This document shows positions 152 through 6,042 of a stretch of 6,274 bases of DNA, in pieces. The first letter of the stretch is position 1; every line of letters starts with the position of its first letter. This stretch comes from a virus (taxonomy: Duplodnaviria; Heunggongvirae; Uroviricota; Caudoviricetes). The notes under the pieces were generated by a model. That model was not told the DNA's origin, searched no databases, and saw only the letters and a list, made by a program, of their open reading frames with translations. The position numbers were made by a program, and so were the translations under genes. The stretch lies in IMG/VR virus record IMGVR_UViG_2681813205_000009. One strand, given 5' to 3'.

Positions 152-492
152 CAGTTCACCACCTGCTCAATCGTACAGCTGAAATCACTGTACCGGGCGT
201 TATCCGTGACGCTCCACTCCCGGCACACCACCCTCACCGTCCGGTTATGTTTCGGCGGTCGCCACAAAAAGGCACGGTAACCACCATGCCAGGATAAAAA
301 TTCATCCAGCCAGCGCCGGGTTGACTCATCCGTCACCCGGAACACCGCCTGAAACGTCTTCAGTTGAGGATTCAGCCCTGTGGGGCGACGCTGTTCATAA
401 CCGTCACCAAACCGTACCCTCGCCACCGACGGTTTCTCACTCACCTGCATCCCTTCACGCGGGACCAGATGCAGCGTTTTTATCTCAGCCAC
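151..492 (-). CDS. M: Minor tail protein M (113 aa)
   Basis: ORF track 151..492(-). Clear similarity to recalled lambda gpM (VRFGDGY, LKT, HGG..FLW.PP, C-terminal EQVVN). The start is GTG at 492..490, with an in-frame TGA immediately upstream so no ATG extension is possible. GGAGGAA Shine-Dalgarno lies about 7 nt upstream. Overlaps the tape measure stop by 8 nt (GTGGCTGA). Confidence 0.9.
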   Translation of the reverse strand: MAEIKTLHLVPREGMQVSEKPSVARVRFGDGYEQRRPTGLNPQLKTFQAVFRVTDESTRRWLDEFLSWHGGYRAFLWRPPKHNRTVRVVCREWSVTDNARYSDFSCTIEQVVN

Positions 493-3400
493 TCAGCATT
501 CCTCCGTCACGTCGCATGGACAGCATCACCGCCTGCACCCGCTGGTCAATCAGCTGCACAAGACTGCCTGCCGCCTCCGGCCCTATCTGGCCATTAGCCC
601 CGTCATTCTGAATGGCGATGTGGTAGACCGGGGAATACACCAGACCGGCACTGCCGTTCATACTGCCCACCGCGCGTACGCCCAGCGAGCCATCCGCCGC
701 CCGGGTCAGGGGCATAATGGCTTCAGGACCGGCCTCCCCCATCAGTCCCGCCCCTTTTGCAAAGGCAAAGTACGTGGGCGTATCCACAATACTGTTGCTG
801 TACGCACTCAGGTTTGCCGAGGTATACACGCCGCCTTTTGCATTGGCCACCGCCCCGCCCAGCCAGTCACCAATGCTGCCGAGAAATCCTCCCGCACCGG
901 ACATACCGTTTGCCGCCGTCTTAATTCCGTTGACAATCGCGGCATTCATAAGAACTTTTGATATTTCCTGCAGCACTGATGAGGCCCAGCTGCGCCATTC
1001 CACTTTATTTCCGTTCAGCATCTCCGTGATGTTATTCACCATCCCTGAGATACCCTCCGTCGCAAGCTGTGCTGCCTGTGAGGCGTAATCGGACGCATTA
1101 TCCACCCAGTTACTGAATCCCTCCTGCAGCCCTTTCTGCCAGTCCGCACGCTGCACATCCGATTCGGCATAAAAGGCTGCCTGGTCCTTAAGGCGTTCGC
1201 TCAGATACTGCGCGTTCTGTGCCCGTGCCTGTCTGTAAAAATCCTCACTGATATCCCCGGTCTGATACTGAGACTGAAGGTCCGCATCCTTCTGGCGGAA
1301 GCTGTCGCGGATCTGCTGCAACTCCCGCATGCGTTCTCTGGCTCGTTCCCCCTGCCCGTACCCCAGCAGTTCAGCATCATTCGACGCACGCGCAGCCGCA
1401 TTCTCATTCTTCAGTGTCTCTTCCCGGGATCGCAACTGTTCCCGGATTTTTTGCTGGTCAATCAGGGCCGCATTACGCAGCAGCTCCTGCTTCTGCATCT
1501 CCGTCAGGGTTTTCAGTTCGCCCTGCGCAGTCTGGTATTTCAGCTTCGCCAGCTCTGTATTCTGACCCGCCAGTGCCAGTTGCTCTTTCTGCTGCTTCAG
1601 TAGCCGGGAAAAACTGTCTTCCGCTTTTTCCGTCTCTGATTTTCTACCCCGGGATTTAGGTTTGTTCGCCTCGTTATTACGCCAGGCTTCCAGAGCATTA
1701 CTGATATAACGCTGTCTCGCCTCCTGATACGAATCCCCCACAAAACCAAGGTCATCCGCCGCATACCCCAGCCGGGCACGCTCTTTTTCCTCCCCCTTCA
1801 GTCGGGACAGGGCCAGCTCACGTTCTGTTTTTGTCAGGGCGCTCTGCTGTTTATCATCCAGGGTGGCCTGCGGCAGCCGTAACGGTACATTCACCAGTCC
1901 CTGACGCTGCTGAAGCAGTTCATTCCCCAGCCCCAGCAGACGGTTGAATTCCGTATGCTGACCGTTCATAACCAGCATGGACTGGTACACCTTATTCTGC
2001 TCTGCCGCCTGCTGACGAATTAACGCCACACGACGGTCTTCCAGCCCGGCAAGCACATCCTGAATGGACTGCGCTTTTTCCTGCATCTGTGCCAGACGGG
2101 ACTGCTCAACGGCAAGCTGCTCTGTTGCCTGAGCAAGCCCTTCCGTTACGGTCTTCACCGAGGTCAGATGGTTTATCATGAATCCGTCACCGGTCGTCCA
2201 GCCCGGGTTCGCCAGAACATACTGATATCCTGCGATTTTTTCCTGCAGGGATTTCACCCGACTGGCCTGTTCATCAATCAGCCGGTTCTGCTCTGTCAGC
2301 GCCGCCCGTGTTCGTCCTTCATTATCTGAGGCTTCAGGCAAAGACATTGACGGCGTTTTATGCGCGATTTCATCTATCGTCAGTGCATACTGGCGCGCAG
2401 ACTCCCTGGCCTGCTCCTGATTCTGGTACAGCGTGTACCATGCTGCAGCCCCCAGCATCACCAGTCCGGGTACGCCACCAACCAGCCCCAGCGCACCGCT
2501 CATCAGACGTGAGCCCACCGCCGTTGTACTGTTCAGCGCATTCTGGGCGGCGCTTCTGGCAGCAATATTTCTGTTCAGGCGTTCCTGTGTGGCCGCCAGA
2601 CGGGCCTCTGCAGCAATCTGCATCTCCGTCCCGCGGGCTGCCGCCACGGCCTGCTGAGCACGGTACACGGCTGCCCTTGCCCGCGCCGTGGCAATCTGCG
2701 TTCCCCTGAACTGTGCTTCCGCCAGTGCCACTTCATTACGTGCTGCCGTCACAAGTCCTGCCGTGGCAGACACCGCTCCGGAGGCCATATTGCCAAAGTA
2801 CCGGGCAACCCCGACGGCAACCAGCGCGCCCACGGCTGTTGCCACATTATCAATCTGTCCGGCAACACCGTTCAGCATGCCGGAGAGCGTTTTTGTCACC
2901 CCGCTGGCCTCATTCGCACCGCCCACCCAGGCCATAAAGGCGTTTTCCACCTTTGTGATACTACTGGAAACCGTTTCCGGCATGGCCGCATATTCATCAC
3001 GTAATATCCCCAGCTGGCTGATTAACGCGGGGACCACTTTATCCGCTGTCAGTTTTCCGTCATCCGCCATTGCCTTCAGATCTTTACGGGCCACGCCCAT
3101 ACCCGCAGCCAGTGCACGTACGATCCGGTCACCACTTTCATTGACCGAATTAAATTCCTCACCGCGTAACACACCCTGTGCCAGCGCCTGGCTGAACTGG
3201 GTGATCACCGAGCCCGCCTCTGCCGTACTGGCACCGGAGATTTTCAGCCCCGTGGAAATGGCCTCCGTCACCTTCAGCACATCATCAGCACTGTAACCAT
3301 ATTCACGCATTGAGGCTGCCGAGCGGGCAAACAGGGCCGCATTATCTGAAAATGCCGTGCCCGTCCGCTGACTGATATCCATCAGCACTTTCTGTGATGA

Positions 3401-3727
3401 CGAAAATTCATCAGATGACTGCGACGCCTGTTTCAGACGGGCATTCACGGAACTCCACTCATCAGCCAGTGAAATCAGGTGTCCGGTGGCAAAGGCACCG
3501 GCAAATGCGCCAGCCATTCCGACAGCAGAACCGCGAATTTCCGTCAACTGGCTGTTCAGTTCTGCCAGGGCACGTCGCTGCTCCCGGGCTGCCGCAGCGG
3601 CCTGACGCCCGCCATTCTGCAGGGTCCGGTAATATTCACTGCCCATACGGGAAGCACGCTGGAGCTCCGACTGGAATGACTGTGAATTTGCCGAAATTTT
3701 GATAATCAGTTCACGTAACGTCGCCAT
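485..3727 (-). CDS. H: Tail tape measure protein (1080 aa)
   Basis: Longest ORF in the window, positioned between the G-T chaperone genes and M. Ala/Gln/Arg-rich, predicted alpha-helical central region; hydrophobic Gly/Ala-rich segments (e.g. LMSGALGLVGGVPGLVMLGAAAWYTLY). The C-terminal tail (NDGANGQIGPEAAG...RRDGGMLSG) resembles the recalled lambda gpH C-terminus (NNDGTNGQIGPAAL...MRDGGLFSG). The N-terminal ~250 aa looks like a generic tape-measure N-terminal domain rather than lambda H. GAAAGG Shine-Dalgarno precedes the ATG at 3727. Confidence 0.95.
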   Translation of the reverse strand: MATLRELIIKISANSQSFQSELQRASRMGSEYYRTLQNGGRQAAAAAREQRRALAELNSQLTEIRGSAVGMAGAFAGAFATGHLISLADEWSSVNARLKQASQSSDEFSSSQKVLMDISQRTGTAFSDNAALFARSAASMREYGYSADDVLKVTEAISTGLKISGASTAEAGSVITQFSQALAQGVLRGEEFNSVNESGDRIVRALAAGMGVARKDLKAMADDGKLTADKVVPALISQLGILRDEYAAMPETVSSSITKVENAFMAWVGGANEASGVTKTLSGMLNGVAGQIDNVATAVGALVAVGVARYFGNMASGAVSATAGLVTAARNEVALAEAQFRGTQIATARARAAVYRAQQAVAAARGTEMQIAAEARLAATQERLNRNIAARSAAQNALNSTTAVGSRLMSGALGLVGGVPGLVMLGAAAWYTLYQNQEQARESARQYALTIDEIAHKTPSMSLPEASDNEGRTRAALTEQNRLIDEQASRVKSLQEKIAGYQYVLANPGWTTGDGFMINHLTSVKTVTEGLAQATEQLAVEQSRLAQMQEKAQSIQDVLAGLEDRRVALIRQQAAEQNKVYQSMLVMNGQHTEFNRLLGLGNELLQQRQGLVNVPLRLPQATLDDKQQSALTKTERELALSRLKGEEKERARLGYAADDLGFVGDSYQEARQRYISNALEAWRNNEANKPKSRGRKSETEKAEDSFSRLLKQQKEQLALAGQNTELAKLKYQTAQGELKTLTEMQKQELLRNAALIDQQKIREQLRSREETLKNENAAARASNDAELLGYGQGERARERMRELQQIRDSFRQKDADLQSQYQTGDISEDFYRQARAQNAQYLSERLKDQAAFYAESDVQRADWQKGLQEGFSNWVDNASDYASQAAQLATEGISGMVNNITEMLNGNKVEWRSWASSVLQEISKVLMNAAIVNGIKTAANGMSGAGGFLGSIGDWLGGAVANAKGGVYTSANLSAYSNSIVDTPTYFAFAKGAGLMGEAGPEAIMPLTRAADGSLGVRAVGSMNGSAGLVYSPVYHIAIQNDGANGQIGPEAAGSLVQLIDQRVQAVMLSMRRDGGMLSG

Positions 3728-3743
3728 TCACCTTTCTCCGGGC

Positions 3744-3768
3744 AAAAAAACCTGCCACAGCAGGTTTT
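3744..3768 (-). terminator. Terminator-like hairpin in the T-H intergenic region (possibly bidirectional)
   Basis: Minus strand reads AAACCTGC-TGTG-GCAGGTTT followed by TTTTTTTGCC: an 8-bp stem with a 5-bp GC core (plus-strand arms 3751..3755 and 3760..3764), a 4-nt loop and a T-run. It sits in the 50-nt gap between the T-frame stop (3778) and the tape measure start (3727). Confidence 0.45.
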
Positions 3769-3777
3769 CATCATTAT

Positions 3778-4457
3778 TTATGACATTGCTGCAAAGCTCA
3801 GCGCGTCTTCCAGCGCCGCAAACGGATCTGACTCCACTTTATCCTCATCCTCGCCCCAGCAGAGCATGGCGTCCTCCAGTGAAACATTCATCCCCTGCGC
3901 CCCGAAAACCGCTTTCACGATCTGCGCATTACGGATATCCCCGCGCTCATCGCCCAGCGGGGACACCCTGTCGAACTCCATCCACATCATCGCCTCGCTC
4001 GCACTCAGACTGTGGCCCAGTTCGGATAAGGTGCGCCCCAGACGGAGCGCAAGTCGCATCAGAAAGCGAATTTCCGGGCGGGCTACTTTTTTCTGGCCGA
4101 CTCTGCATCAGCGATCAGTTCCAGTGCCTGACGCAGCAACCGGGCATGTACCGGACCATAGACGGCCAGCACCTGCTCACGGTCGTCCGGAGTGAACACC
4201 CGCTGCAGATCCGTATCACACAGGACATCGCAGAACAGCGTCACATCCGCTTCCAGGTTACGGCGGGTTTTCGCCACCACCGACAGGGTATCGTCATCCT
4301 CTCCATCACCATTGAGCACTTCCTGCCACAGATACCAGGCCTCTGCCGAAGGCTCCCGCAGCACCACGCTGACATTACCCCATTCCGGCACCTTCACCGT
4401 TTTATGACGAAACCCTGACAGTCTGGCCAGCGCCAGCGTTTTCAGATCCTTTTTCAT
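3778..4457 (-). CDS. Tail assembly chaperone G-T fusion made by -1 programmed ribosomal frameshift (about 226 aa)
   Basis: The G frame ends ...ARKK-TAG at 4083..4085. Slipping -1 at A_AAA_AAG (4086..4092) continues as VARPEIRFLMRLALRLGRTLSELGH..., which is exactly the ORF-track T-frame ORF 3778..4059. The T frame has no ribosome-binding site or independent context of its own. Position between major tail and tape measure genes matches the conserved G/GT arrangement of long-tailed phages. Confidence 0.8.
4083..4457 (-). CDS. Tail assembly chaperone G (about 124 aa from ATG 4457; the track ORF extends to 4505)
   Basis: ORF track 4083..4505(-). I prefer the in-frame ATG at 4457 (MKKDLKTLALARL...): it lies 14 nt after the major tail stop and is preceded by AAGGGGA. 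The 4505 start would overlap the major tail gene by 34 nt and add an Arg-rich leader. Acidic segment (NGDGEDDD) and terminal slippery heptamer are typical of G-like chaperones. Confidence 0.8.
   Translation of the reverse strand: MKKDLKTLALARLSGFRHKTVKVPEWGNVSVVLREPSAEAWYLWQEVLNGDGEDDDTLSVVAKTRRNLEADVTLFCDVLCDTDLQRVFTPDDREQVLAVYGPVHARLLRQALELIADAESARKK
4086..4092 (-). other. -1 programmed frameshift slippery heptamer A_AAA_AAG
   Basis: Minus strand reads GCC AGA AAA AAG TAG. The heptamer A AAA AAG (the same motif as the E. coli dnaX shift site) sits immediately before the G stop, and the -1 frame stays open for 102 codons to 3778. Confidence 0.8.
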
Positions 4458-4471
4458 GATGACCCATCCCC

Positions 4472-5188
4472 TTATCCGGCGGCTGCGCTCACTGTCACGG
4501 TGCATTCAACAGACGTCACACTCTGTGCTTTCTCTGCCGAATCGGTCACCACGCAGGTATATTTCCCCGCATCAGCGGACTGCGCACCTGGCTTACTGAA
4601 GGTGTCTGTCGTCTGCCCGTCAACCGGCTGACCATCCTTCTTCCAGGCGTATTTATACGGCGGCGTTCCCCCGTTGGCACTGACTGACATTGTCAGCAGC
4701 GCACCTGTATTCACGGTAAGTGTTTTATCCAGATTTTTCACAAACGCCAGCGGTACCACAAAGGACACCGGTTTGCCTTTCATACGCAGTGAAAACGTTG
4801 CTGCCACCACGCCGTTGGTACCGGATGACCAGGTGTGCTGACGCACTTCCGCCAGGAACTTAAAGCCCTTACCGGACGGAAACAGCACCTTAAACGCATA
4901 CAACGCGTCATTGTCATAGGCATCACGCAGGGCGTTCTGGGCCTGATTCAGATAAAAATTACCCGACATGGAAATCTCAGACGACGCCCCCAGACCGTTG
5001 ATGTTCTCCTGCTCTGTGGAGCAGAGCGTGGTCACATCAATATCCTGTTTCTGACCGGCGGTGAACTGGACTTCCTTGATGGTGCAGTCCAGGCGCAGAT
5101 ATTCCGCCTTATCCATAGTTTCAGCAGTCGCCGGGGCAGATGAAATCATCACCTGCGTCAGCTGTGAGCGTTCATACAAAGCAGACAT
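4472..5188 (-). CDS. Major tail (tube) protein with C-terminal Ig-like domain (238 aa)
   Basis: ORF track 4472..5188(-). Strong AGGAGG Shine-Dalgarno 4 nt upstream of ATG 5188. Lies immediately upstream of G/G-T, the conserved major-tail position. The C-terminal ~80 aa carry an immunoglobulin-type motif (YKYAWKKDGQPV...DAGKYTCVVTD), as seen in Ig-like decorations of phage major tail proteins. Confidence 0.88.
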   Translation of the reverse strand: MSALYERSQLTQVMISSAPATAETMDKAEYLRLDCTIKEVQFTAGQKQDIDVTTLCSTEQENINGLGASSEISMSGNFYLNQAQNALRDAYDNDALYAFKVLFPSGKGFKFLAEVRQHTWSSGTNGVVAATFSLRMKGKPVSFVVPLAFVKNLDKTLTVNTGALLTMSVSANGGTPPYKYAWKKDGQPVDGQTTDTFSKPGAQSADAGKYTCVVTDSAEKAQSVTSVECTVTVSAAAG

Positions 5189-5204: not shown

Positions 5205-5225
5205 AAAAAACCCGCACGCGGCGGG
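5205..5225 (-). terminator. Terminator-like hairpin in the intergenic region upstream of the major tail gene
   Basis: Minus strand reads CCCGC-CGCGT-GCGGG followed directly by TTTTTTATTA: a 5-bp all-GC stem (plus-strand arms 5211..5215 and 5221..5225), 5-nt loop and T6 run, about 17 nt upstream of the major tail AGGAGG. Confidence 0.4.
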
Positions 5226-5254
5226 GTATGGGTTTTGTAGAAAAAAAGAAAAAG

Positions 5255-5599
5255 TCACACCGTGACCTGAAACTCCAGGGTTGCACGGTAACAGCGGTTT
5301 TCCGGAATATAGTCCTGCATTTCACTGACGGATCCCGGGGCCAGCAGCATTATGGCTTCACGGGCGTCCTGACGTATCTGACGCGCCTGCGTCACAGTCC
5401 CGGCATAAACGTCTATCTGCACCGACACTGAGGACTCCGCCTGCCCGCCCATCACGTCCGCCGACACCGATGAAATCAGGCTGAAAACCACCCACGGAAG
5501 CGCCACCGACGGCCTGCCATCCAGCAGGGGGACCACATACGGGTACACCTGCCCGCCGGCAAGATGCGCCAGATGAGGATACAAATCCGCCTCCGTCAT
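5255..5599 (-). CDS. Tail terminator / tail completion protein, lambda U position (114 aa)
   Basis: ORF track 5255..5599(-). Size and position (immediately upstream of the major tail gene) match the tail-terminator slot. The N-terminal pattern (VYP...DGRP...PWVVF) resembles what I recall of DUF3168-type tail terminator proteins. Start ATG overlaps the upstream stop as ATGA. Family assignment is from memory, not a search. Confidence 0.65.
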   Translation of the reverse strand: MTEADLYPHLAHLAGGQVYPYVVPLLDGRPSVALPWVVFSLISSVSADVMGGQAESSVSVQIDVYAGTVTQARQIRQDAREAIMLLAPGSVSEMQDYIPENRCYRATLEFQVTV

Positions 5600-6042
5600 C
5601 GTCTCAGTACCTCATCAATGGCCCGGTTCATCCGAGCAATCGCCACTTGCGCTGCCTGTTCACTGCGCACATCAAACGCCGGACGCACAAACGGGTGCGG
5701 TGGCATATTCACGGTCCCCATTTCCACAAACCGCCAGTAGAAAGCGTTGCGCGGGTTATCCGCCTTCATGGTGTTATCGCTGTTACCGGTGTCCGGATTA
5801 ACACCCCGGATATGCACACCGGATTCCATCCCGCCATCGCGGGAGCGCCGGGAAAGGACCACCACATTGCGGCGCAGTTTTCCCCTGCGTACCGGTGCCC
5901 GTGACACCACTTCTTCTTTCAGCACATTCGCACCCGCACGGGTTGCCTCACGCAGCACCCGGTTATTTTCCGCACCACTCAGAAGCTGCAAATCGCGGCT
6001 GATGTCCTCCAGCCCCGAAAAATCCAGCAGGGTTTCGATCAT
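5596..6042 (-). CDS. HK97 gp10-family tail-component protein, lambda Z position (148 aa)
   Basis: ORF track 5596..6042(-). GGGAGG Shine-Dalgarno 7 nt upstream of ATG 6042. Conserved-looking C-terminal segment (AFYWRFVEMGT...PPHPFVRPAFD) resembles the HK97 gp10 family as I recall it. Positioned two genes upstream of the major tail gene. Confidence 0.7.
   Translation of the reverse strand: MIETLLDFSGLEDISRDLQLLSGAENNRVLREATRAGANVLKEEVVSRAPVRRGKLRRNVVVLSRRSRDGGMESGVHIRGVNPDTGNSDNTMKADNPRNAFYWRFVEMGTVNMPPHPFVRPAFDVRSEQAAQVAIARMNRAIDEVLRR

Follow-up and report, generated by a model that had tools for sequence, protein, structure and literature searches.

The end of gene G in this stretch of phage DNA is almost certainly an ordinary programmed -1 G/GT frameshift site, belonging to the HK97-type tail module of a lambdoid Escherichia coli prophage. 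It has the anatomy, the G and T homology and the conservation of such a site, and about 7% shifting has been measured in a published assay, in a reporter carrying the identical 75 nt. The site is therefore one that is already known, having been assayed in 2013 and catalogued in 2014. We analysed the whole stretch of 6,274 nucleotides, hereafter called the window, together with related loci from other phages and prophages.

Anatomy of the shift site

According to the sequence and its list of open reading frames, all genes of the window lie on the minus strand (Table 1). Gene G runs from the ATG at 4457 to a C-terminal end ...AESARKK, and its 3' end reads AG-A AAA AAG TAG, with A_AAA_AAG in the X_XXY_YYZ phase relative to the G frame. 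A previous sequence-only reading of this DNA had described A_AAA_AAG as directly adjoining the stop codon of G, and this is exactly what was found, with the heptamer at 4092..4086 and the TAG at 4085..4083. The range given there, 4083-4095, takes in both the stop and the heptamer, but it includes three extra bases and did not state that the site lies on the minus strand.

Table 1. Features of the G-T locus and its neighbours in the window
Feature	Position	Strand	Remarks
Major tail (tube) protein gene, upstream neighbour	4472..5188	-	Pfam Phage_TTP_11, Phage_tail_2, Ig_3/I-set; annotated 'major tail subunit'
Gene G, tail assembly chaperone	4083..4457	-	124 aa plus TAG; PF06222; same 375-nt CDS in RefSeq
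75-nt published reporter cassette, identical stretch	4038..4112	-	exact match, 0 mismatches
TGA closing the -1 (T) frame upstream	4108..4110	-	restricts the shift window to 22 nt
Slippery heptamer A_AAA_AAG	4086..4092	-	sole in-phase heptamer in the 22-nt overlap; kept in relatives
Zero-frame stop TAG of G, adjoining the heptamer	4083..4085	-	same +0 layout (TAG or TAA) in three family branches
T-frame (-1) coding segment	3778..4086	-	102 aa plus TAA 3780..3778; PF06223 on the fusion
Internal ATG used as start of a separate 'tail assembly protein T' (93 aa)	4057..4059	-	GenBank/RefSeq annotation
Tape measure protein gene, 1080 aa, downstream neighbour	485..3727	-	Pfam Phage_HK97_TLTM, TMP_3, Tape_meas_lam_C

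The -1 frame is open from 22 nt ahead of the G stop and continues for 102 codons to 3778. Its translation from 4086 gives VARPEIRFLMRL...AAMS and a stop, or in a longer form VARPEIRFLMRLALRLGRTLSELGHS...SFAAMS and a stop, ending at 3778. The conceptual G-T fusion is 226 aa long. Its junction, ...SARKK/VARPEIRF..., is the peptide that the sequence-only reading had predicted, which is right by translation of the -1 frame from 4086.

As a bare motif, AAAAAAG is not in significant excess in the window: two copies were counted over both strands where 0.79 would be expected, and a count of two was reached in 40 of 200 shuffles. It is the position and phase of the motif that are significant, because the TGA at 4110..4108 leaves only about six in-phase positions in the 22-nt overlap, and the probability of finding AAAAAAG at one of them is about 3e-4 at the base composition of the window. 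In-phase X_XXY_YYZ heptamers of any kind number four in the 1,823 codons of six genes, and the heptamer at the end of G is the sole in-phase A/G-type efficient heptamer in these codons.

The other AAAAAAG of the window (5242..5248, plus strand) is intergenic, between a gp17-like gene and the tube gene, where it forms part of the T-run of a minus-strand terminator-like hairpin; it is unrelated to recoding. An in-phase G_GGA_AAA was also noticed at 5878..5884 (minus strand), inside an HK97-gp10-like gene (5596..6042). This heptamer is shift-prone in E. coli when it is given a stimulator, 17% having been obtained with the IS3 pseudoknot (PMC4066793), and the copy at 5878..5884 is probably incidental.

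G and T lie between the tube and tape measure genes

When compared with Pfam, the 124-aa G matched PF06222 (Phage_TAC_1) over residues 1-124 of 124 (E=1e-61), and the 226-aa fusion matched PF06223 (Phage_tail_T, the lambda gpT family) over residues 152-222 (E=6e-18). The order of genes on the minus strand is a V-like gene (5188..4472), G (4457..4083), the T frame (4086..3778) and the tape measure gene (3727..485), and the G/T pair occupies the canonical G/GT position between the tube and tape measure genes. Position, -1 overlap, in-phase slippery site and homology were each found as in the G/GT chaperones (Xu, Hendrix & Duda 2004), and a low-efficiency shift yielding a fusion product was found through the published reporter on the identical sequence. 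The earlier proposal of a programmed -1 G/GT shift at this place is thus borne out by gene order, Pfam matches, reading frame, heptamer phase, conservation and the published reporter.

Two starts of G are in use, one at 4505 (140 aa, inside the tube gene; GenBank LC567835) and one at 4457 (124 aa; RefSeq). We favour the 124-aa form because the Pfam model aligns with it from end to end and because AAGGGGA lies about 12 nt ahead of ATG 4457. The tube protein itself carries an in-frame C-terminal Ig-like domain (residues ~150-227; Pfam Ig_3, Ig_2, I-set), and some phage records name the Ig-bearing tube protein 'Hoc-like head decoration' or 'fibritin'.

An identical cassette shifts in a published reporter

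The site belongs to cluster A_AAA_AAG_25 of Sharma et al. 2014 (PMC4066793 Table S4), whose representative, ECs1801, is listed as 'tail assembly chaperone; [true]'. The cluster comprises 53 genes with a longer frameshift product, for which -1 PRF 'can be safely inferred' according to a footnote (PMC4066793). Two cassettes of the 'Phage_TAC' cluster had been placed in a GST-MBP reporter in E. coli by Antonov et al. 2013 (PMC3711429). The cassette of GeneTack fs-gene 15618692 gave 7% +/- 0.79 of -1 frameshifting (PMC3711429 Supplementary Table S2), and that of a relative with G_GGA_AAG CCG TAA gave 6% +/- 0.61 (PMC3711429). We take the former, together with ECs1801/ECs1802 of prophage Sp9 in E. 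coli O157:H7 Sakai, as the closest known system; the 75 nt tested are those of window 4038..4112. We found no relevant difference between the two sites; the window carries a further copy of this prophage module, in an O145/O111/O103-type EHEC background. The dual-reporter assay across 4040..4110 that the sequence-only reading had proposed had thus, in effect, been published, with a result of 7% on 4038..4112 (Antonov et al. 2013).

The GST-MBP western-blot reporter was used outside the phage context and cannot separate ribosomal from transcriptional slippage (PMC3711429). We therefore considered the possibility that the G-T fusion arises mainly from RNA polymerase adding one A in the A6 run, which would yield the same ...KKVARP... 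protein. The identity of the product, the homopolymeric nature of the site (6 A here, 7-8 A in sister lineages) and the inability of the published reporter to tell the two routes apart are all compatible with such a mechanism. However, programmed realignment takes place on longer runs, A n>7 (PMC3711429), and shifting of E. coli ribosomes on A_AAA_AAG is proven. Moreover, homologues carry the non-homopolymeric G_GGA_AAG or G_GGA_AAC at the same position, and the G_GGA_AAG cassette shifted at about 6%. Transcriptional slippage is accordingly very unlikely to be the main source of the fusion, and ribosomal frameshifting is the reading that we retain.

The shift site is kept while the heptamer is exchanged

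Phage records, GTDB genomes and IMG/VR supplied about 105 related loci, and in each of them we located the end of G, the -1 overlap and the in-phase heptamers. All lineages among them had a shift-prone site close to the C-terminus of G, and the site was kept in relatives down to about 56% protein identity. In the clade of the window the sequence is invariably AGA AAA AAG TAG. In a sister clade, at 68% protein identity, the corresponding sequence is ...TTA AAA AAA AAG TAG, with a -1-frame TAA immediately ahead of the heptamer; the overlap is here exactly the 7 nt AAAAAAG, and a shift is therefore possible only there. Xenorhabdus khoisanae, an Enterobacter MAG and Kosakonia sacchari have GAA AAA AAG TAA. 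The mEp390-like prophages have GCG GGA AAG CCG TAA, and Pseudomonas relatives have G_GGA_AAC followed by one codon and TGA. The site stands further from the stop in other Xenorhabdus and Burkholderia relatives (A_AAA_AAG or A_AAA_AAA, 24-33 nt ahead of it) and in HK97-type phages such as HK446 (CGG GAA AAG, 15 nt ahead of it). The distance between heptamer and stop is +0 in three branches of the family and +3 nt in two others.

On a neighbour-joining tree of the G proteins (built with no bootstrap), the heptamer types were interleaved, and the site has therefore been kept while the heptamer was exchanged. This agrees with the earlier statement that the G/GT event is conserved while the heptamer varies, heptamers being swapped at the end of G among the ~105 loci. 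A_AAA_AAG and G_GGA_AAG, which are equally efficient, thus swap freely at one homologous position. A joined (slippage) CDS has been deposited for HK446 and for Burkholderia phage KS9.

The conservation extends into the T frame. The stretch of residues from the heptamer to the annotated ATG is kept across clades (VARPEIRFLM, VALPGMRFLM, VNEPVTFFMM and VKDPLTFFLM), Pro-4 and Phe-8 being conserved in VARPEIRFLM, VALPGMRFLM and VKDPLTFFLM. Because residues upstream of the ATG are conserved, we argue that the T frame is entered at the heptamer and not at the ATG. Judging from these alignments, the ATG at 4057..4059 is most likely simply the Met of a conserved F-L-M motif. The database view would instead make G and T independent proteins, with T starting at ATG 4059 and the heptamer being incidental. 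This would be in line with the two CDSs given by GenBank and RefSeq and with the presence of a T-frame ATG 27 nt after the G stop, but we give it next to no credence. By reading, no SD-like sequence was found in the 20 nt before ATG 4057..4059, and the T-frame residues ahead of this ATG are retained even in diverged clades. In addition, an in-phase heptamer, this one or an equivalent, is conserved in all lineages, the overlap has shrunk to exactly 7 nt in one clade, the shift has been measured on the identical sequence, and the lambda T domain acts only within gpGT (PMC5009743). Entry into T by a frameshift at the heptamer accounts for the locus far better.

Several HK97-type relatives have no canonical in-phase X_XXY_YYZ heptamer, namely HK446 (L003:1036-1087) and loci L007, L008, L009 and L012. 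The sole candidate in them is GCG CGG GAA AAG, 15 nt ahead of TAA, and HK446 is still annotated as joined. The shift in these phages may proceed by A-site A_AAG slippage alone, or by G:U re-pairing of tRNA-Glu on GGA.

One IMG/VR prophage copy (L042:1272-2171) departs from the others, in that its T frame diverges past ...LALRLGRTL, has no stop and enters a sequence containing HSHPGG, a motif which we take to be lambda-K-like (JAMM/NlpC). This suggests a deletion of most of T, the tape measure gene and neighbouring minor tail genes in a decayed prophage.

The heptamer acts without a dnaX-like stimulator

We looked for the elements that stimulate -1 frameshifting at other sites. By reading, no SD-like element was present in the 20 nt upstream of the heptamer, GCUGAUGCAGAGUCGGCCAG, in which GGAG, AGGA and GAGG are all lacking; the cluster A_AAA_AAG_25 was likewise scored as having no SD by Sharma et al. 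2014 (PMC4066793).

The 80 nt downstream of the heptamer folded at -30.2 kcal/mol (z -2.34 versus shuffles), and a 160-nt context gave a z of -0.05. Overall, the window's own downstream 60-80 nt folded somewhat better than shuffles (z -2.3 to -3.8). Sliding folds of 30, 45 and 60 nt were then computed with spacers of 0-9 nt after the heptamer, and segments of 30-45 nt starting 0-7 nt past it folded no better than shuffles (z +0.4 to -1.7). The source of the signal was an 8-bp hairpin (GCGCUCCG/UGGGGCGC) that starts about 34 nt past the heptamer, inside the conserved ALRLGR coding motif. It is the sole strong hairpin downstream, and the 75-nt cassette, which contains only half of it, nevertheless gave 7%. 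We rejected it as a stimulator because about 34 nt is too far for it to be at the mRNA entrance during decoding of the heptamer.

The RNAalifold consensus of 11 diverged A_AAA_AAG-plus-stop sequences had an energy of only -10.2 kcal/mol, its covariation term being unfavourable at +0.46. Pair counts for the window's own structure matched those of shuffled controls (68.8% versus 68.5% paired), and a search of Rfam, including known frameshift elements, returned two chance-level matches only (E about 0.3). The published hairpin score of the cluster, a ddG of 0.020 +/- 0.023, does not exceed the local background (Sharma et al. 2014, PMC4066793). A conserved downstream stimulatory structure was rejected on the folds, the consensus, the pair counts and Rfam. 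The sequence-only reading had seen no convincing downstream structure by eye, and the prediction it suggested for the RNA 3' of the heptamer, once run, upheld this: no conserved stimulator emerged, only the hairpin some 34 nt away. A lineage-specific structural contribution in the window is conceivable. The heptamer, within its local context, makes up essentially the whole shift signal, with no dnaX-like SD and no conserved downstream stem-loop.

The comparison with E. coli dnaX illustrates this. The two sites share the identical heptamer A_AAA_AAG and the same tRNA-Lys. However, in dnaX the heptamer is flanked by an SD-like stimulator on its 5' side and a stem-loop on its 3' side, shifting reaches about 50% and the frameshifted protein is shorter, whereas the window has no SD and no conserved hairpin, shifts at about 7% and makes a longer one. 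Among the three parts of the dnaX signal, the heptamer was found in the window, while an SD about 10 nt upstream and a stem-loop 5-9 nt downstream were both absent, and the heptamer is the only element that the sites have in common.

Does the adjoining stop codon contribute?

The bare A_AAA_AAG heptamer gave 0.3% in another reporter. The native cassette gave 7%, about 20 times more, which suggests some local context effect. The 3' context can change shifting by up to 12-fold, and the gap between 7% and 0.3% may come from 3' context, from the reporter method or from a small contribution of the adjacent stop or of local structure. An argument based on 3' U as the optimal context of A_AAA_AAG was dropped, a review placing 3' C above U as generally the more shift-prone.

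The layout of the site raises the possibility that the adjoining stop is functional. Ribosomes would then slip with UAG in the A site (an E/P-site slip) in competition with RF1, and RF1 activity would set the G:GT ratio. In favour of this are the family branches with the heptamer close to the stop, three of them with direct contact and two with a gap of 3 nt. Natural heptamer-plus-stop sites are known from RSV and BYDV, and an intercodon effect is documented (PMC4373837). The higher shifting of the native cassette compared with the bare heptamer in its different context also points this way, and the ~20-fold gain would be explained as well if the stop were a tuning element. On the other hand, some family members have the heptamer 15-33 nt ahead of the stop, and the G_GGA_AAG cassette, with its stop at +3, is equally efficient (6%). 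Furthermore, a stop used as intercodon lowered -1 shifting in E. coli, and overexpression of release factor abolished it (Horsfield et al. 1995, summarised in PMC4373837). The proximity of the two may merely reflect an unconstrained C-terminus of G. We therefore think it unlikely that the slip occurs with the stop in the A site, and equally doubtful that the stop is a selected tuning element making the G:GT ratio responsive to release-factor activity. The RSV and BYDV sites resemble the window in having the zero-frame stop directly after the slippery heptamer (PMC4373837), but they are eukaryotic viral signals that rely on strong downstream structures and use other heptamers.

A model for G and G-T synthesis

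In the ordinary programmed -1 shift that we favour, most ribosomes would read AGA AAA AAG and terminate at the adjoining UAG, producing the 124-aa G. A small fraction, about 7% in the reporter, would slip back by one base on A_AAA_AAG. At the level of the tRNAs, two tRNA-Lys(UUU), or the A-site one alone, would re-pair from AAA-AAG to AAA-AAA. As at known A_AAA_AAG sites, it would be tRNA-Lys(mnm5s2UUU), whose pairing with AAG is weak, that re-pairs on AAA in the -1 frame. Reading would then resume with GUA GCC CGC... in the T frame and yield the 226-aa G-T fusion. If the fusion works as in lambda, its G part would bind the tape measure protein, its T part would recruit the major tail protein, and both G and GT would be absent from the virion.

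In lambda itself (Levin, Hendrix & Casjens 1993; Xu, Hendrix & Duda 2004, 2013, 2014), G/G-T occupies the same place in the gene order, and the -1 shift again falls close to the 3' end of G. The T domains of the two systems are homologues (PF06223), and both systems show low-level shifting without a dnaX-type stimulator. The lambda G:GT ratio is about 30:1, and the roles of G and T have been reviewed (PMC5009743); only for lambda is it known that tail assembly needs G and GT together in a balanced ratio and that virions contain neither (PMC5009743). We infer from this analogy that a G:GT ratio is likewise set in the prophage and serves tail assembly. Lambda differs in its heptamer, which is GCG GGA AAG (G_GGA_AAG), as the sequence-only reading had stated, and which stands five codons before TGA, whereas the window has A_AAA_AAG with the stop adjoining. 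The G domain is a further difference, that of the window being Phage_TAC_1, the HK97 type; lambda gpG presumably belongs to another Pfam family.

The members of the HK97-type pair, 'tail assembly chaperone' and 'Gp14' of HK97 according to the HK446 record, belong to the same Pfam family with 63% identity to the G of the window, and HK446 and its relatives have the same gene order with the fusion annotated as a joined CDS. They differ in the shift site, GCG CGG GAA AAG 15 nt before TAA, which is non-canonical as an X_XXY_YYZ heptamer.

Distribution and annotation

Prophages of EHEC strains match the window with 100% identity, among them those of O145:H28 RM12761/RM13516, O111:H11, O103:H2 and others. 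Its G and T are 98% identical to ECs_1801/1802 of Sakai Sp9, with an identical junction. Of 5,426 complete E. coli genomes, 1,246, or about a quarter, contain related G-T modules, a single genome having as many as 7. Related copies also turned up in 92 records of Stx-converting and related phages.

GenBank and RefSeq give G and a 93-aa T as separate CDSs with no slippage. The free-standing T CDS occupies 3778..4059 (minus strand) in the window, and 3462-3743 in both L001 and L002. In RefSeq (PGAP) and GenBank, T is labelled variously as 'phage tail assembly protein T', 'DUF4035 domain-containing protein' or 'minor tail protein'. The missing joined annotation touches prophage copies in those ~1,246 complete E. 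coli genomes. The practical value of the present analysis lies in this annotation, RefSeq and GenBank still giving G and a truncated 'T' and not the joined G-T product; the site adds little new biology, the G/GT shift being a textbook recoding event.

Terminator-like hairpins around the tail genes

A 9-bp hairpin, AAAACCUGC-UGUG-GCAGGUUUU followed by UUU, was noticed at 3747..3768 (minus strand), between the T stop (3778) and the start of the tape measure gene (3727). It resembles an intrinsic terminator or an attenuator separating the two genes. The HK446 record has rho-independent terminators annotated after the major tail gene and just ahead of the tape measure gene. Two further terminator-like sites lie upstream of the tube gene in the window, at 5225..5211 and 5268..5252 (minus strand).
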